Shown here in pieces: positions 877-50,820 of a stretch of DNA of 64,000 nucleotides. The first letter of the stretch is position 1. Each line of letters starts with the position of its first letter. Source of the DNA: a plasmid; the NCBI RefSeq assembly GCF_054482525.1, contig NZ_JBTHVG010000003.1; one strand, written 5' to 3'. The position numbers were made by a program, and so were the translations under genes. The notes below the pieces were generated by a model that saw only the letters and a list, made by a program, of their open reading frames with translations, searched no databases and had not been told where the DNA came from.

Positions 877-1109
877 AAGCTACCAGGTATGCACTGGTTA
901 TAACATGCTGAAAAATAAGTTATTTATCAGTGCTATGCTTAGTGCTTCTTTTACTACTGGTCTTACATCTCGGCTTAATGTGCAAAAAAGTAACTTTTCA
1001 AACGAACTCCTGACTATTCATCTGTATGCCTTTCTGGCTCAAGCGTACATGCTAGCCCATTCATTAAATGCCGTGGAGCAAGATGGTTTCGTGCGCACTC
1101 TATTCACGT

Positions 1110-1600
1110 GAATGCCTTTTGTGGATTACGCCTCTTACATTCATACAAATGCTTTTGATGTCGGTATCCCAAAAAATCATTCATTGAAATGCTTTTGTTT
1201 GCCACTGTATCCCGAGCATAGCTATGCAGTGGTATAAAAAGGCATTTTGGTGAATGGCATTAGGTCGAATGACACACAGTACAGCTTTGTTAAGAGCGAG
1301 AATGGTCCAAGACATCTATGACATTGGGCATCAGAAGGACTATGTGTTTGATATGAGATCAAAAAAATATCAGAAGCATCACAACTCCAATGGCATTCAA
1401 AGAAATGCCTTTGTTTTGTTAGTACACCAAACAACCCAAAATTCATGCAGTTATATCAAAGACTCATTCGCAAAAGGACTCAGCCAGAAAGCATTTGCTT
1501 AAATAGCATTGGCCAAAAGCATTCGAATGAATGATGTTCATATGGACAAGACAAAGTCCCACTCACGCCCAGAGGTGTAAAAGGCATTTAGATGAATGAC
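1110..1600. repeat. Iteron-like repeat cluster downstream of repA (core AATGCCTTTTG / CAAAAGGCATT in both orientations, about 8-9 copies)
   Basis: Repeated motifs seen directly: gtgaatgccttttgtgg, caaatgcttttgatg, gaaatgcttttgttt, aaaaggcattttggtgaatggcatt, gaaatgcctttgttttg, ccaaaagcattcgaatgaatg, taaaaggcatttagatgaatgac. No long ORF with coding character in this stretch. Confidence 0.55.
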
Positions 1601-2024
1601 GCACCGGCCGAGGATTGTATGTAGTTTCTCCAACTGATAGTTGCCGAACCAGGGAGCACAGTGATATGCGGCCTTCTCAGAATCAAGAGATAGATATTAA
1701 GGGAACAAAAAAGATTAGATATGAAGCTTAGTTACCTGCCCGATATCTAGTTAGAGCTTTTCAAACCATCAAAAGTGACTTTTATGCTTGAGGAGTCTCA
1801 TCAGCTTCAGGATTGAGCTTAACGTAATCTTACCCCCTCCCCTCTTTCAAACTTTTACTAAGCGTTCACTGGTACTTTTCAAAGATTATGCTTTAGGCCC
1901 CTTTGCTTAAAAATTCACCAATCGCTAAACGTTAAAAAAAGGGGGTTTATGCGAACGGAAGGATCGGAATAAAAAAGTATTATTCATTCGCGTTTACGTG
2001 AACTCAAATCTACACGGAGTAATT

Positions 2025-2378
2025 ATGGAACTTTCTTTAAATATTGGCCTTAGTGAAAAGAAATCTAACACGGCTGCACTTTTTAAAACAAAAAGCGCAA
2101 AAGTGATTTTGTTTGTTCTGCTGACCGTGCTTTTTTGCGGTCTGGCATATGCGGGTTCAGATGATGGGGCACTGGGAGATATTTGGTCATACATGAGTGA
2201 AAGTATGACTGGAGCTCCGGGCAAAATTCTGGCAGCCGCGATGTTGATCTCAAGCGTATATTTCTCTGTCCTTAAGCCTAACCCGGGCCTGGCACTGGTT
2301 TCATTATTCATGATGCTGGTAATGGCCAACGGCGAGAAAATTATCAGCACCTTTATGGATGCTGGCGTACCGCTGTAA
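2025..2378 (+). CDS. traA: Conjugative pilin precursor (TraA/TrhA-like)
   Basis: Small protein with a long leader, probable cleavage after LAYA, and a mature part with two hydrophobic segments. GGAG ribosome-binding site 7 bp upstream of the ATG at 2025 (the track ORF starts at 1998). Sits at the head of the traL-traE-traK-traB cluster. Confidence 0.5.
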   Translation: MELSLNIGLSEKKSNTAALFKTKSAKVILFVLLTVLFCGLAYAGSDDGALGDIWSYMSESMTGAPGKILAAAMLISSVYFSVLKPNPGLALVSLFMMLVMANGEKIISTFMDAGVPL

Positions 2379-2400
2379 TTTATTGTTAATCATGCATGAG

Positions 2401-2412
2401 GGGGTTCATCCC
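2401..2412. repeat. Target-site duplication (GGGGTTCATCCC), left copy, flanking IS186
   Basis: The identical 12-mer occurs immediately outside both terminal inverted repeats (2401-2412 and 3750-3761). Confidence 0.7.
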
Positions 2413-3749
2413 ATAAGCGCTAACTTAAGGGTTGAACCATCTGAAGAATGCGACGCCTCGGTGCCTCGTTAAGACGATGCCTCGCGTTCTTCAATTGCGT
2501 TTTGTAGGCTGTCAGGGATACTGTCCCACGAATGGCCACCTGTAAGCTCCAGATGACCATTTTTGTTATTCTCCACAACGAGTTAGTTCTTCTTTTCGGA
2601 TCCGGCACTTCTGGGGGGGAAATCCAGCGATGGCTGGATTATGTCGTCAATTAAAAATGCGGCGAGTAGATTAGCAAATATCCACGCTTTCGCGAGTTCA
2701 GGTTCCTTTGCACGCAAAGCATCCAGGTGCAGCAAACTTTTGAGCCGCTTAAAAGCCAGTTCAATTTGCCATCGCAGACGGTAACAATCAGCCACTTGCT
2801 CTGCTGAATATTCATCTTCCGGTAATGATGTTAGCAATAGCACATGGCCCGCTGCTTCCAGCGTTTCCGCCTGAACTACTCGTCCTTTTCGACGATTCTC
2901 GCTGAGCAGTCGGGTTTTACTGATTAATGCTTTTTCGGGAGGAAGTGATACGGCAATGAGACGTGCCGGAAAGGGAGCTCCGGCTTTTTTATTACCTGAA
3001 TTGCCTATCATTACAGTGGTTTCACCGTTCTTACCGCAATCCAGCCCGCGCAGAAAACCCATCATGTCAAAGCGCATTCCTTCTGCAGTTAACCAGCGCA
3101 ATCCTCGCCAGTGAACCCGGACGATATAATCAGCTTCTCCAAAAGCAAGTGAGCGGATACATTCGGGACGCGAACCGAATCCCCGGTCAGCAATGCGTAT
3201 CTCGTCTGCCGTTTGCGCAAATCGGTCCAGCCGTTCAGCGTCTCTGCTGTCGGTTAGCTCAAAATCAGTGAACTGACAGGTATGAGGATCATATCCCATA
3301 TGTAGTCGCCATTCAGCGCTGCCGCCCCCGGGCGCACTGATTGCTGTTCCATCGACAAGACGCAATCTCTTTCCGCTTGTACAACCCGTAACTGCGGCGC
3401 GTACAGCAAGTGTTTGTGCGGCAAGTATGCCAAACCAGTCGGCGGCATTCCGCAGCCGCTTCAGGAGAGCCACGTCAGATAATGTTGCAACGTCATGGAG
3501 CTGAGCCCATGCAGTGACTTCACGTAATGACATCCCCCCGGGGCCGTAAGCCAGCCCCAGACGTAGCAGAGTTGCAGCATCACGAATTTCGCGGCGGCGG
3601 GTTAGAGCCCCGGCATTACGTGCCGAAGTATCCAGTTCTTCGGGCTTACCAATATGGGCCAGAATTGCTGACCAGTTATCGTGAGAGTAATTCATCGGCA
3701 CGTTAAATCATATCAGGCGTAATACCACAACCCTTAAGTTAGCGCTTAT
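2413..3749 (-). mobile_element. IS186-like insertion sequence (IS4 family), about 1337 bp, with terminal inverted repeats ATAAGCGCTAACTTAAGGGTTG
   Basis: Perfect inverted repeats at 2413-2434 and 3728-3749 enclose one transposase ORF. The protein sequence matches my recollection of the E. coli IS186 transposase (MNYSHDNWSAILAHIGKPEE...). Flanked by a 12-bp direct repeat. Confidence 0.85.
2583..3701 (-). CDS. insL: IS186 transposase (DDE, IS4 family)
   Basis: 372-aa ORF filling the IS. Recognised from memory as IS186 InsL-like; the true start may be the third codon (MNYSH...). Confidence 0.85.
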   Translation of the reverse strand: MPMNYSHDNWSAILAHIGKPEELDTSARNAGALTRRREIRDAATLLRLGLAYGPGGMSLREVTAWAQLHDVATLSDVALLKRLRNAADWFGILAAQTLAVRAAVTGCTSGKRLRLVDGTAISAPGGGSAEWRLHMGYDPHTCQFTDFELTDSRDAERLDRFAQTADEIRIADRGFGSRPECIRSLAFGEADYIVRVHWRGLRWLTAEGMRFDMMGFLRGLDCGKNGETTVMIGNSGNKKAGAPFPARLIAVSLPPEKALISKTRLLSENRRKGRVVQAETLEAAGHVLLLTSLPEDEYSAEQVADCYRLRWQIELAFKRLKSLLHLDALRAKEPELAKAWIFANLLAAFLIDDIIQPSLDFPPRSAGSEKKN

Positions 3750-3761
3750 GGGGTTCATCCC
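3750..3761. repeat. Target-site duplication (GGGGTTCATCCC), right copy, flanking IS186
   Basis: Same 12-mer as at 2401-2412, immediately outside the right inverted repeat. Confidence 0.7.
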
Positions 3762-3777
3762 CCTCTCTGGATTTTTA

Positions 3778-4095
3778 ATGAGTAAGCAGAACGACGTTCC
3801 TCAGCATACCTATAGATTCCCTTTCAGGATCAACATGCCTCTACTGATTTTGTTTTGGGATGCAAAAAAAATAGGGCTTGCATTCATTCTGGTTGCATTT
3901 GGGAATATCTTCGAATGCTTCGGGTTTTCTGTTGTAGTAGCGGTTGTATATTGGATTGCGTATAACAAAGCAGCTGAGTCAGGAATAAGAGGATTGCTAA
4001 AACACAGACTCTGGTGGCTCGGTTTTTTGCCAGGTAAAGCAGTTTTTAGTAGCCGTTATTTCAACGATCCATTTATCAGAGATTTGTATTCTTGA
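3778..4095 (+). CDS. traL: T4SS protein TraL-like (VirB3-like)
   Basis: 105 aa. YRFP motif near the N-terminus and a hydrophobic core, resembling F TraL. First gene after the IS186 insertion. The track ORF start at 3748 lies within the target duplication, so the ATG at 3778 is preferred. Confidence 0.55.
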   Translation: MSKQNDVPQHTYRFPFRINMPLLILFWDAKKIGLAFILVAFGNIFECFGFSVVVAVVYWIAYNKAAESGIRGLLKHRLWWLGFLPGKAVFSSRYFNDPFIRDLYS

Positions 4096-4106
4096 TGGAG
4101 CTATGA

Positions 4107-4895
4107 ATGAAAATGCTAAGTGGCATTAACATCCCTTTTTTCAAAAAATCTAAAAAGGATGAAAACGGTGATCTTGAACAGTCATACGTAAAGAAAGATG
4201 AAAGTGCTAAGGGACGTTTTTTGGACATTAAAAAACGATTTAGCCCACAAGCTGAAGCGTCAGGTGCTGGAATTACATACAGCGCCCTGATTAATCGTGA
4301 TACAAAACTTATCCGCATTAATACTGTTTCAATAGCCGTCATTGGGTTATTGGTTGCAAAGATTCTTTTTTTCACTGACCCAGTGACGATTGTTACCCCT
4401 CCAAACATGAATGAAGAGATCACGGTTGTTGGTAACAAAGCATCGGAATCTTATAAAACACAATGGGCTCTCTTTTTTAGTACCCTTTTAGGGAATATTA
4501 ATCCAACTAATATTTCCTTTGTGACGGCCTATGTCCTCGATGCCCTTTCACCTGAACTACAGGCTAAAACGAGTGAGTCTTTACAGGAGCAGATAAATAT
4601 CATGCAGGCTCGTGGTGTTGAGCAGACCTTTAAGCCTAATGATATTTACTTTGATCCAAAAAATGACATGGTCTATGTCTGGGGTACCAAAACGACTCGA
4701 CTTGTAAATGTTCCGGACAAAACTGAATCATCGAAATGGACTTATGAATGGGTTCTCGGGATGAAAAATGGTCGCCCAAGAATTGCATATGTAAATCAAT
4801 ATTCCGGAACACCGAATATTAAAAAAATTACGATAAACGGCAAAGAGCAACTGGCAACGCTGGATAATCCGCCACCGTCTACAGGTAACAAGTGA
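4107..4895 (+). CDS. traE: T4SS protein TraE-like (VirB5/TraE family), N-terminal membrane anchor
   Basis: 262 aa, one N-terminal transmembrane segment then a periplasmic domain. Position between traL and traK. GGAG ribosome-binding site upstream. Confidence 0.55.
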   Translation: MKMLSGINIPFFKKSKKDENGDLEQSYVKKDESAKGRFLDIKKRFSPQAEASGAGITYSALINRDTKLIRINTVSIAVIGLLVAKILFFTDPVTIVTPPNMNEEITVVGNKASESYKTQWALFFSTLLGNINPTNISFVTAYVLDALSPELQAKTSESLQEQINIMQARGVEQTFKPNDIYFDPKNDMVYVWGTKTTRLVNVPDKTESSKWTYEWVLGMKNGRPRIAYVNQYSGTPNIKKITINGKEQLATLDNPPPSTGNK

Positions 4896-6166
4896 TGATT
4901 AAAAAAAAGGGCTTAGGGTTCAACGCAATTACCGCATTGATCATGCTCACGACTTCGAACTGCGTAATCGCTGAAGAATACCAATTGCCAGCAACAATTA
5001 ATAACCCGGTTGTAATGCCAGTTGGTGCTGACGGATTTCAGAATGGAGCTGCAAAAGCCATTATTCCGGGTCAAGCTGGTTCTGAACAGTCAGGTGCACA
5101 AACAAACCTTAGTGAAGCCGGTAATGCGCAGGGACAAAAACCTACAACTGATCTCCCTACCGTGCAACTTTCCCCAGCCAGCAATGCTTCGCCTGCGGTA
5201 AGCGCTATTACTGGAGCATTATCAAATAATCCTAGTCTCCCCGGATTTGACGCACAGACCCGCTCTGGTGCAATTGATAGCTATGGGAGACCAACAGGTA
5301 CCTCTTCCCAGCAGAATGCAACCAATGCGACCGCCACGTCAAAAGCCGATGAACTTTATGTCGAAGCTCGTAACCGATATAAAGAAGTTCAGCGTGTAAA
5401 TGTGCCGCCTGGTGGGAATGTGGTACTGCCAGTTTCACGAGGACTTCAAAACAGAATATCGACCAGCTTCAAGAATGCTTCTGTCAGCACTTCTACCCCT
5501 GCTGAAGAGGCAAGCATATTTGTTAATGGTGGCGATGTCTTTATTTCAACTAATACCGATAAACCAATCGGGATTATGTTGTCGGAAGATCAGGTACCTG
5601 AATCGACCTATAACCTGACCCTGGTACCGCTTGATGTTCCCGGTGCGATGATTTCAGTTACTACATCTTTAAGCCCATCTATGCAAGCCAAACGTGAAAC
5701 CTCATTGGATAAGCAAAACTATGAGGAAATGTTGGCCCGCTCCCAGTCAGAAGAACTGGCTCCATCGGATCCAAAACAAGACGATCATAAACAAAGAATC
5801 ATTGATTTATTGACTCCTGTGGCTCTTGGTGAGGTCCCTTCAGGATTCAGTTTACAACAGGACCGACTTTCTCGTATTCCTGCGTCAGAGCAGTCCCCAT
5901 GTAACTTTAATATGTATGCAAAGCTCGGTCAGAGACTGGTTGGCTCACGTGAACTTATTGATGTAATTCTTGTGAAAAACGATAAACCATACGGTCAAAT
6001 CGTTGCTGATCAGCAGTGTATGGCAGAAGGCGTTATTGCAAGTGCTTTATTTGATAAAGCATACCTGCAACCGGGAGAAGAAACAGAGCTTTACATAGTC
6101 CGGGATAAATTGTTCAAGGAACGCGAGGCCCGGGTTACAACCAGACCAAGTCTAATCAGAAAATAA
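4895..6166 (+). CDS. traK: T4SS protein TraK-like (VirB9/secretin-like) with a long low-complexity N-terminal extension
   Basis: Signal peptide. C-terminus (ELYIVRDK...) resembles F TraK (DVYVIRDG). ATG at 4895 overlaps the traE stop (ATGA). About 424 aa versus about 240 in F; the N-terminal half is rich in A/S/T/Q/N/P. Confidence 0.55.
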   Translation: MIKKKGLGFNAITALIMLTTSNCVIAEEYQLPATINNPVVMPVGADGFQNGAAKAIIPGQAGSEQSGAQTNLSEAGNAQGQKPTTDLPTVQLSPASNASPAVSAITGALSNNPSLPGFDAQTRSGAIDSYGRPTGTSSQQNATNATATSKADELYVEARNRYKEVQRVNVPPGGNVVLPVSRGLQNRISTSFKNASVSTSTPAEEASIFVNGGDVFISTNTDKPIGIMLSEDQVPESTYNLTLVPLDVPGAMISVTTSLSPSMQAKRETSLDKQNYEEMLARSQSEELAPSDPKQDDHKQRIIDLLTPVALGEVPSGFSLQQDRLSRIPASEQSPCNFNMYAKLGQRLVGSRELIDVILVKNDKPYGQIVADQQCMAEGVIASALFDKAYLQPGEETELYIVRDKLFKEREARVTTRPSLIRK

Positions 6167-44101: not shown

Positions 44102-44150
44102 AACCCTATCGGGAAATCTTTCCCGTTGGGGAGGGTTTCCCCTTTTTTTT
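44102..44150. repeat. Conserved palindromic intergenic element / putative terminator
   Basis: aaccctatcgggaaatctttcccgttggggagggtttcccctttttttt. Confidence 0.5.
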
Positions 44151-47386: not shown

Positions 47387-47423
47387 ACCCAATCGGGGCA
47401 AAAGGCCCCGGTGGGTCTTTTTG
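47387..47423. repeat. Palindromic intergenic element / putative terminator
   Basis: cccaatcggggcaaaaggccccggtgggtctttttgc. Confidence 0.5.
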
Positions 47424-50776: not shown

Positions 50777-50820
50777 CCCATGTGGGGATCACACCCCATA
50801 TGGGAGTGATCCCTTTTTTT
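50777..50820. repeat. Conserved palindromic intergenic element / putative terminator
   Basis: cccatgtggggatcacaccccatatgggagtgatcccttttttt. Confidence 0.6.

Follow-up and report, generated by a model that had tools for sequence, protein, structure and literature searches.

An intact copy of the insertion sequence IS186B lies between the pilin gene trhA and trhL in the transfer operon of an IncHI2 plasmid. It is flanked by a 12-bp target-site duplication and occupies a sequence that matches the target consensus of the element and that carries IS186 in dozens of other plasmids. Differences among these occupied loci indicate that the trhA-trhL site is an IS186 hot spot, independently hit repeatedly and in both orientations. 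The body of observations is very probably best explained by the entry of IS186B into a hot-spot stem-loop, with a mild effect on the downstream genes. According to this scenario, the intercistronic stem-loop GGGGG-TTCAT-CCCCC located between trhA and trhL would have received its copy by transposition, either from an E. coli host or from an IS186 elsewhere on the plasmid; the insertion generated the 12-bp duplication and split the stem-loop while leaving both genes intact. This stem-loop is a near-ideal IS186 target that acts as a hot spot, not only in the IncHI2 group but also, in one case or more, in IncHI1. Positions given below refer to the window, i.e., the whole stretch of 64,000 nucleotides that was analysed.

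Identity and boundaries of the element

The element (1337 bp, positions 2413-3749, minus strand) is 100% identical to chromosomal IS186B and exhibits no mismatch with IS186A of E. coli K-12 over all 1337 bases. It shares its length, its terminal repeats and a 370-amino acid InsL protein with the IS186A, IS186B and IS186C copies of E. coli K-12, which belong to the IS4 family, and the sole difference from these is its location, here the transfer operon of an IncHI2 plasmid. A single DDE transposase gene, insL (2583-3695, minus strand; 370 amino acids from its ATG; Pfam DDE_Tnp_1, E=1.6e-26), occupies most of the ~1.34-kb element and reads away from trhL, towards trhA. GC content shifts from ~0.40-0.43 in the flanks to 0.49-0.57 inside the IS. 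Dozens of public records already annotate the insertion as "IS4-like element IS421 family transposase", "IS421 family" being the PGAP label.

Both ends carry a perfect 22-bp terminal inverted repeat: ATAAGCGCTAACTTAAGGGTTG at the transposase-distal end (2413-2434) and its counterpart at the transposase-proximal end (3728-3749), which holds the probable -35 box of the insL promoter, reading inward. Written as (C)ATAAGCGCTAACTTAAGGGTTG, these repeats of 22-23 bp are the same as the ends of K-12 IS186A. The 12-bp target-site duplication GGGGTTCATCCC abuts the element on the left (2401-2412) and on the right (3750-3761), and the probability of finding this exact 12-mer at both ends by chance is ~6e-8. 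K-12 IS186A likewise has its own 12-bp duplication, in GGGGATCACTCCCC. Counting the flanking C (2412) and G (3750) as part of the IS would be equally valid and would give repeats of 23 bp, an element of 1339 bp and a duplication of 10 bp; this ambiguity is inherent to the element, since IS186 lands between a G-run and a C-run. All three features on which the earlier note had based its description of an intact insertion, namely the full element, the perfect 22-bp repeats and the 12-bp duplication, are confirmed in the sequence. Its suggestion that the event was recent is plausible, yet age is not demonstrable from sequence identity since almost every IS186 copy shows 99% identity or more.

Plasmid context and insertion site

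The window corresponds to the replication-proximal end of an IncHI2 plasmid. In the annotations of identical records, whose replicon is typed IncHI2A, the gene order trhA-trhL-trhE-trhK-htdO-trhB adjoins the RepHI2 replication gene. Positions 1400-5400 are found identical and at the same coordinates in CP090263.1 and CP090298.1 (pE-R791-1-NDM-5-type, 187,710 bp), NZ_CP026936.2 and others, while from 39.5 to 64 kb the window consists of conserved backbone that 861 records share at 99% identity or more. CP090263.1, the best match among the records, is typed non-mobilizable, its relaxase being absent.

Upstream of the element, the H-pilin gene trhA of the IncHI2 Tra2 region (2025-2378, plus strand) is intact, its stop codon falling 34 nt before the IS. 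This gene is an annotated CDS in identical records, bears the name trhA in AP026508.1 and LC735984.1, and shares ~70% DNA identity with trhA of R27; a Pfam search with its protein gave no match. The first gene downstream, trhL (3778-4095, plus strand; Pfam TraL), begins with an ATG located 28 nt after the IS end and is followed by trhE (4107-4895, plus strand; Pfam TraE), the next gene of the AC operon. The IS does lie in the first intergenic gap of this T4SS operon, as previously proposed, and the flanking genes can now be named as IncHI trhA and trhL. The length of 45 bp given for this gap did not hold: from the trhA stop to the trhL ATG, the restored gap measures 50 nt (2379-2412 plus 3762-3777). 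Removal of the IS and one repeat yields taatcatgcatgaGGGGGTTCATCCCCCtctctggatttttaATG, the exact empty-site state of relatives, and the comparison with uninterrupted plasmids proposed in the earlier note bears out the restored junction, as ~1,050 related plasmids have exactly taatcatgcatgaGGGGGTTCATCCCCCtctctgg.

The TGGA motif upstream of the trhL ATG is kept despite the insertion. At positions 3748-3777, the IS end together with the first G of the duplication creates a new ATG in frame with trhL, which would add 10 codons (MGFIPLSGFL). Such an extra in-frame ATG is formed whichever the orientation of the IS. No Shine-Dalgarno motif was found upstream of it, and this start codon is probably unused.

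A conserved stem-loop as IS186 target

IS186 is described as preferring GGGG(N6/N7)CCCC targets (PMC6925257, citing Chong 1985, SaiSree 2001 and Lee 2016). The restored site, GGGGGTTCATCCCCC, reads GGGG-GTTCATC-CCCC and fits this consensus, and the 12-bp duplication at this G-run/N/C-run target is within the expected ~10-13 bp. The consensus is rare in the 64-kb window, whose backbone is AT-rich: four matches are present where 0.45 would be expected; one of them, GGGGTTCATCCCCC (3750-3763, plus strand), is the copy regenerated by the insertion and adjoining the IS. The three other matches (44128-44142, 47395-47409 and 50784-50797) are located in the backbone and are unoccupied in the window.

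The restored gap folds with -25.6 kcal/mol (z = -3.3), the 7-bp core alone accounting for -14.8 kcal/mol, and the IS splits this structure into weaker halves of -7.5 and -6.7 kcal/mol. IncHI2, IncHI1 and IncHI1B plasmids have in common the arrangement GAGGGGG-loop-CCCCCTC, then TCTGGA, a T-run and the ATG, which in the restored sequence of the window corresponds to 2392-2412 plus 3762-3780. This arrangement is kept while trhA and trhL of the IncHI1 and IncHI1B groups are only ~70% identical in DNA to those of IncHI2. The intact stem-loop was considered as a transcription terminator and rejected: it fails the terminator scan, its T-run starting 7 nt past the stem, and array signals for trhA and trhL of R27 are alike (PMC7366339). 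It could be an mRNA stabiliser or a processing site following the pilin gene.

Repeated insertion in both orientations

Among ~1,111 PLSDB plasmids containing the region, IS186 is present at the site in 28 in the orientation of the window and in 29 in the inverted orientation, the rest being essentially all empty (~1,050). RefSeq complete E. coli genomes that contain the IncHI2 left flank give a similar picture, with 21/273 occupied in one orientation and 21/273 in the other, i.e., 15% occupied. The site is polymorphic, empty or occupied, among otherwise identical molecules, a sign of IS186 mobility that can be read from the sequences alone. Given these counts, the insertion is not a feature private to this plasmid.

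Examination of the junctions at individually fetched loci revealed four different states. The window, p100R and pCFSAN004025.1 have the window orientation with a 12-bp duplication, and p280_9355 the same orientation with a 13-bp duplication. The inverted orientation is accompanied by a 12-bp duplication in pCTXM199_025970, p280_12888 and pE-T84-1-mcr-1 and by a 13-bp duplication in pCE1537-A and pSLK172-1. The common backbone carries the IS in both orientations, as does a variant with 8 SNPs downstream. In pRHB41-C11_2 (CP056986.1; locus 1000-3714), two tandem IS186 copies in the same orientation, with 13 bp between them, occupy the trhA-trhL gap, the second sitting in the target regenerated by the first. 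Finally, the IncHI1A plasmid p2017.17.03CC_1 (NZ_AP027830.1) of E. coli from Viet Nam carries an identical IS186 in the homologous stem-loop (locus 2605-3941) with a 13-bp duplication, GGGGATATTCCCC; the site is broken in ~3/281 IncHI1 records. The 12- and 13-bp duplications, the two backbone variants, the tandem double insertion and the IncHI1 case together point to repeated independent hits, about six being a minimum and not a full count; some of the differences between 12 and 13 bp could be homopolymer errors. Common inheritance probably accounts for some of the identical site states.

It is quite improbable that all occupied plasmids inherited one ancestral insertion, with the opposite orientation produced by inversion in place between the terminal repeats. 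This history draws on pairs of similar-sized plasmids. p280_9355 and p280_12888, which share a Salmonella serovar and a source, have opposite orientations, as do pE-R791-1-NDM-5 (CP090263.1) and pE-T84-1-mcr-1 (CP090269.1), which have similar strain names and adjacent accessions. The 12-bp states also have the same flanks in both orientations, and the inverted repeat together with the quasi-palindromic flank forms 35-nt arms that are 89% complementary. However, the first of these pairs differs in duplication length too (13 bp versus 12 bp), both orientations are present on two backbones, the tandem and IncHI1 insertions need new transposition, and the site is empty in ~95% of relatives. Moreover, work cited by PMC3045373 documents that IS186 can hit one site repeatedly and in either direction. 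In-place inversion alone was consequently rejected as the main explanation of the two orientations, the duplication lengths, backbones, tandem copy and IncHI1 case needing separate insertions. In individual pairs of opposite orientation, the IS may have excised and re-inserted, inverted, or arrived in separate hits.

IS186 is multicopy in E. coli, being detected in 2,220/5,426 complete genomes with a median of 3 places per genome, and a chromosomal copy could in principle have been misplaced into the plasmid during assembly. Two relatives do show suspicious structures at the site: pEGY49_MCR-1.1 (NZ_MW719568.1, locus 1297-1606) has a 282-bp IS186 with its interior missing, in an Illumina-only assembly, and pEC5207 (NZ_KT347600.1, locus 1000-1140) has a solo 22-bp IS186 end next to a duplicated 85-nt segment from the 5' part of trhL. 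Both may be collapsed short-read repeats and were not counted as biological states. For the insertion itself, such an artefact is extremely improbable, considering the exact target duplications at a consensus target and the presence of the same junctions in more than 50 independent assemblies, hybrid and long-read ones included, also from hosts other than E. coli.

Other insertions were observed in the vicinity. pRHB41-C11_2 contains an IS3-family element between trhL and trhK. pSLK172-1 (NZ_CP017632.1, locus 700-1800) has ISApl1 in or beside trhA in addition to its inverted IS186 at trhA-trhL, so the pilin gene region of this plasmid received two independent IS hits. Many IS-bearing plasmids hold a second IS186 elsewhere.

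Host distribution

Occupancy of the site is strongly biased towards Escherichia. IS186 occupies it in 46/378 (12%) of the IncHI2 plasmids from this genus versus 11/744 (1.5%) of those from other genera (odds ratio 9.2, Fisher p=9e-14), in agreement with the earlier proposal that IS186 suggests residence in E. coli. Occupied plasmids were also found in Salmonella, Klebsiella, Citrobacter, Kluyvera and E. albertii. The window orientation was seen in Salmonella and Klebsiella, and both orientations occur outside E. coli. In the Salmonella plasmid CP082693.1, the copy at the trhA-trhL site is the sole IS186. The presence of occupied plasmids in other genera, including CP082693.1, suggests that plasmids crossed between genera after gaining the IS.

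Consequences for downstream transcription and transfer

In the IncHI1 plasmid R27, the genes from trhA to trhC form one operon, AC (PMC7366339). A single trhA-trhC unit transcribed from a promoter upstream of trhA is reported for R27 and assumed here for IncHI2. If so, 1.35 kb would now separate the AC-operon promoter from trhL through trhC, and in the window orientation the expression of these genes would depend on read-through. The most likely outcome would be a lowering, not an abolition, of mating-pair gene expression.

A stronger version of this effect, in which the insertion severs trhL-trhC from the AC promoter and renders the plasmid transfer-deficient, seems rather unlikely. The single-operon organization in R27 fits such polarity, and so does a terminator-like hairpin inside the IS, GCCGGA-N8-TCCGGC followed by TTTTTTATTA (2965-2994, plus strand; -11.0 kcal/mol), which could act as a terminator. 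This hairpin with its T-run is co-directional with trh transcription in the window orientation only; in the inverted orientation, no T-run follows it. Judged from these features, stronger polarity is expected from the window orientation than from the inverted one.

A strongly polar effect is opposed by reports of transfer. pCE1537-A, with the inverted IS, was reported to be conjugative (PMC7999438), and strain EC13049, donor of pEGY49_MCR-1.1 with its window-orientation junctions, transferred mcr-1 at 2.8e-4 per donor (PMC8069611), the latter evidence resting on a short-read assembly that shows the IS as a 282-bp remnant; neither report examined the site. The finding of the window orientation in Salmonella and Klebsiella, including CP082693.1, and the orientation ratios of 28:29 and 21:21 also oppose one orientation being a dead end. 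Records identical over positions 1400-5400 do include plasmids typed non-mobilizable, which would at first sight favour severe polarity, but this label stems from the missing relaxase, and the IS would then be irrelevant to their transfer. By the same token, transfer of the plasmid studied here may be lost for unrelated reasons, the best-matching CP090263.1 being without a relaxase. p1106-IncHI2MCR, which carries IS186B somewhere on the plasmid, is not conjugative according to the literature, and its IS-free sister is not conjugative either. The expectation in the earlier note that transfer would differ from that of uninterrupted relatives is hence weakened by the IS-bearing pCE1537-A and the EC13049 donor, suggestive as these two cases are, while a smaller effect is possible. 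The IS may affect transfer, but a large effect is probably not to be expected.

The opposite outcome, in which an outward or hybrid promoter of the IS activates or decouples the downstream genes and raises or derepresses transfer, is very unlikely. The earlier note had proposed an outward promoter as a possible driver of traL-traC, and the absence of such a promoter would favour the polar alternative. In the window orientation, no sigma-70-like promoter facing trhL passes a standard scan of the plus strand; in a relaxed scan, the best plus-strand candidates reach 8 of 12 matches with a non-optimal 19-nt spacer, so this part of the proposal is not supported by the sequence scan. Activation is favoured by the probable insL promoter (TTAAGG-19-TG-TATGAT), which points at trhL when the IS is inverted. 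IS186 insertion, in the 2001 work of SaiSree, is said to lower lon expression, which disfavours strong outward IS186 promoters. Insertions of IS186 into the lon promoter were also selected in both orientations as lon promoter mutations, as cited in PMC3045373. Lowered but not abolished downstream expression, with a probably mild effect on transfer, remains our preferred account.

Relation to known IS186 insertions

IS186 insertions in the lon promoter have a clear loss-of-expression phenotype. The lon promoter is a known IS186 hot spot: insertions there fall on a single position and face either way (SaiSree et al. 2001, as cited in PMC3045373 and PMC3861542). From what these citing papers relate, the trhA-trhL site resembles it in being a single G-run/C-run site that fits GGGG(N6/N7)CCCC and receives repeated spontaneous hits in both orientations. 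It differs in that the lon site is a promoter, whereas the site described here is a conserved stem-loop between two genes of a conjugation operon. Another likeness is found in an experimental evolution study in which IS186 moved from the E. coli chromosome to a consensus site in repF of an IncQ plasmid (PMC6925257). There, downstream genes were parted from their promoter, as with trhL onwards here; however, replication of the IncQ plasmid was inactivated, leading to its chromosomal integration, whereas IncHI2 plasmids persist and circulate with the IS. In the Tra2 AC operon of R27 (trhA-trhC), the gene order is the same and the same conserved stem-loop precedes trhL, but the site is empty, and DNA identity between the R27 genes and their IncHI2 counterparts is only ~70%. 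R478 has its own IS186B at a different location. Our literature search on IS186B in IncHI2 plasmids returned passing mentions only, and no description of the trhA-trhL hot spot was found among them.

The element and its target preference are thus already known, and with this insertion at a recurrent hot spot IS186 does nothing out of the ordinary. The census of occupied sites and the conservation of the stem-loop add modestly to this knowledge and do not amount to a system of a new kind. One could speculate that the stem-loop is an IS186 landing pad whose occupation, in 12-15% of E. coli IncHI2 plasmids, is adaptive, acting as a possibly reversible and orientation-dependent damper on a costly pilus and T4SS while the plasmid is kept; we give this idea little credence. 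If it were true, IS186 would be a host-specific modulator of the transfer of IncHI2 plasmids bearing mcr-1 or NDM genes.

IncHI2 plasmids are major carriers of mcr-1, blaNDM and blaIMP. If the IS alters mating-pair gene expression, the transfer rate or fitness cost of roughly one in seven IncHI2 plasmids from E. coli would depart from that of the textbook backbone, and predictions of IncHI2 spread would be affected. An occupied trhA-trhL site marks past residence in E. coli, but it must not serve to infer common descent in plasmid epidemiology, because the insertion recurs.
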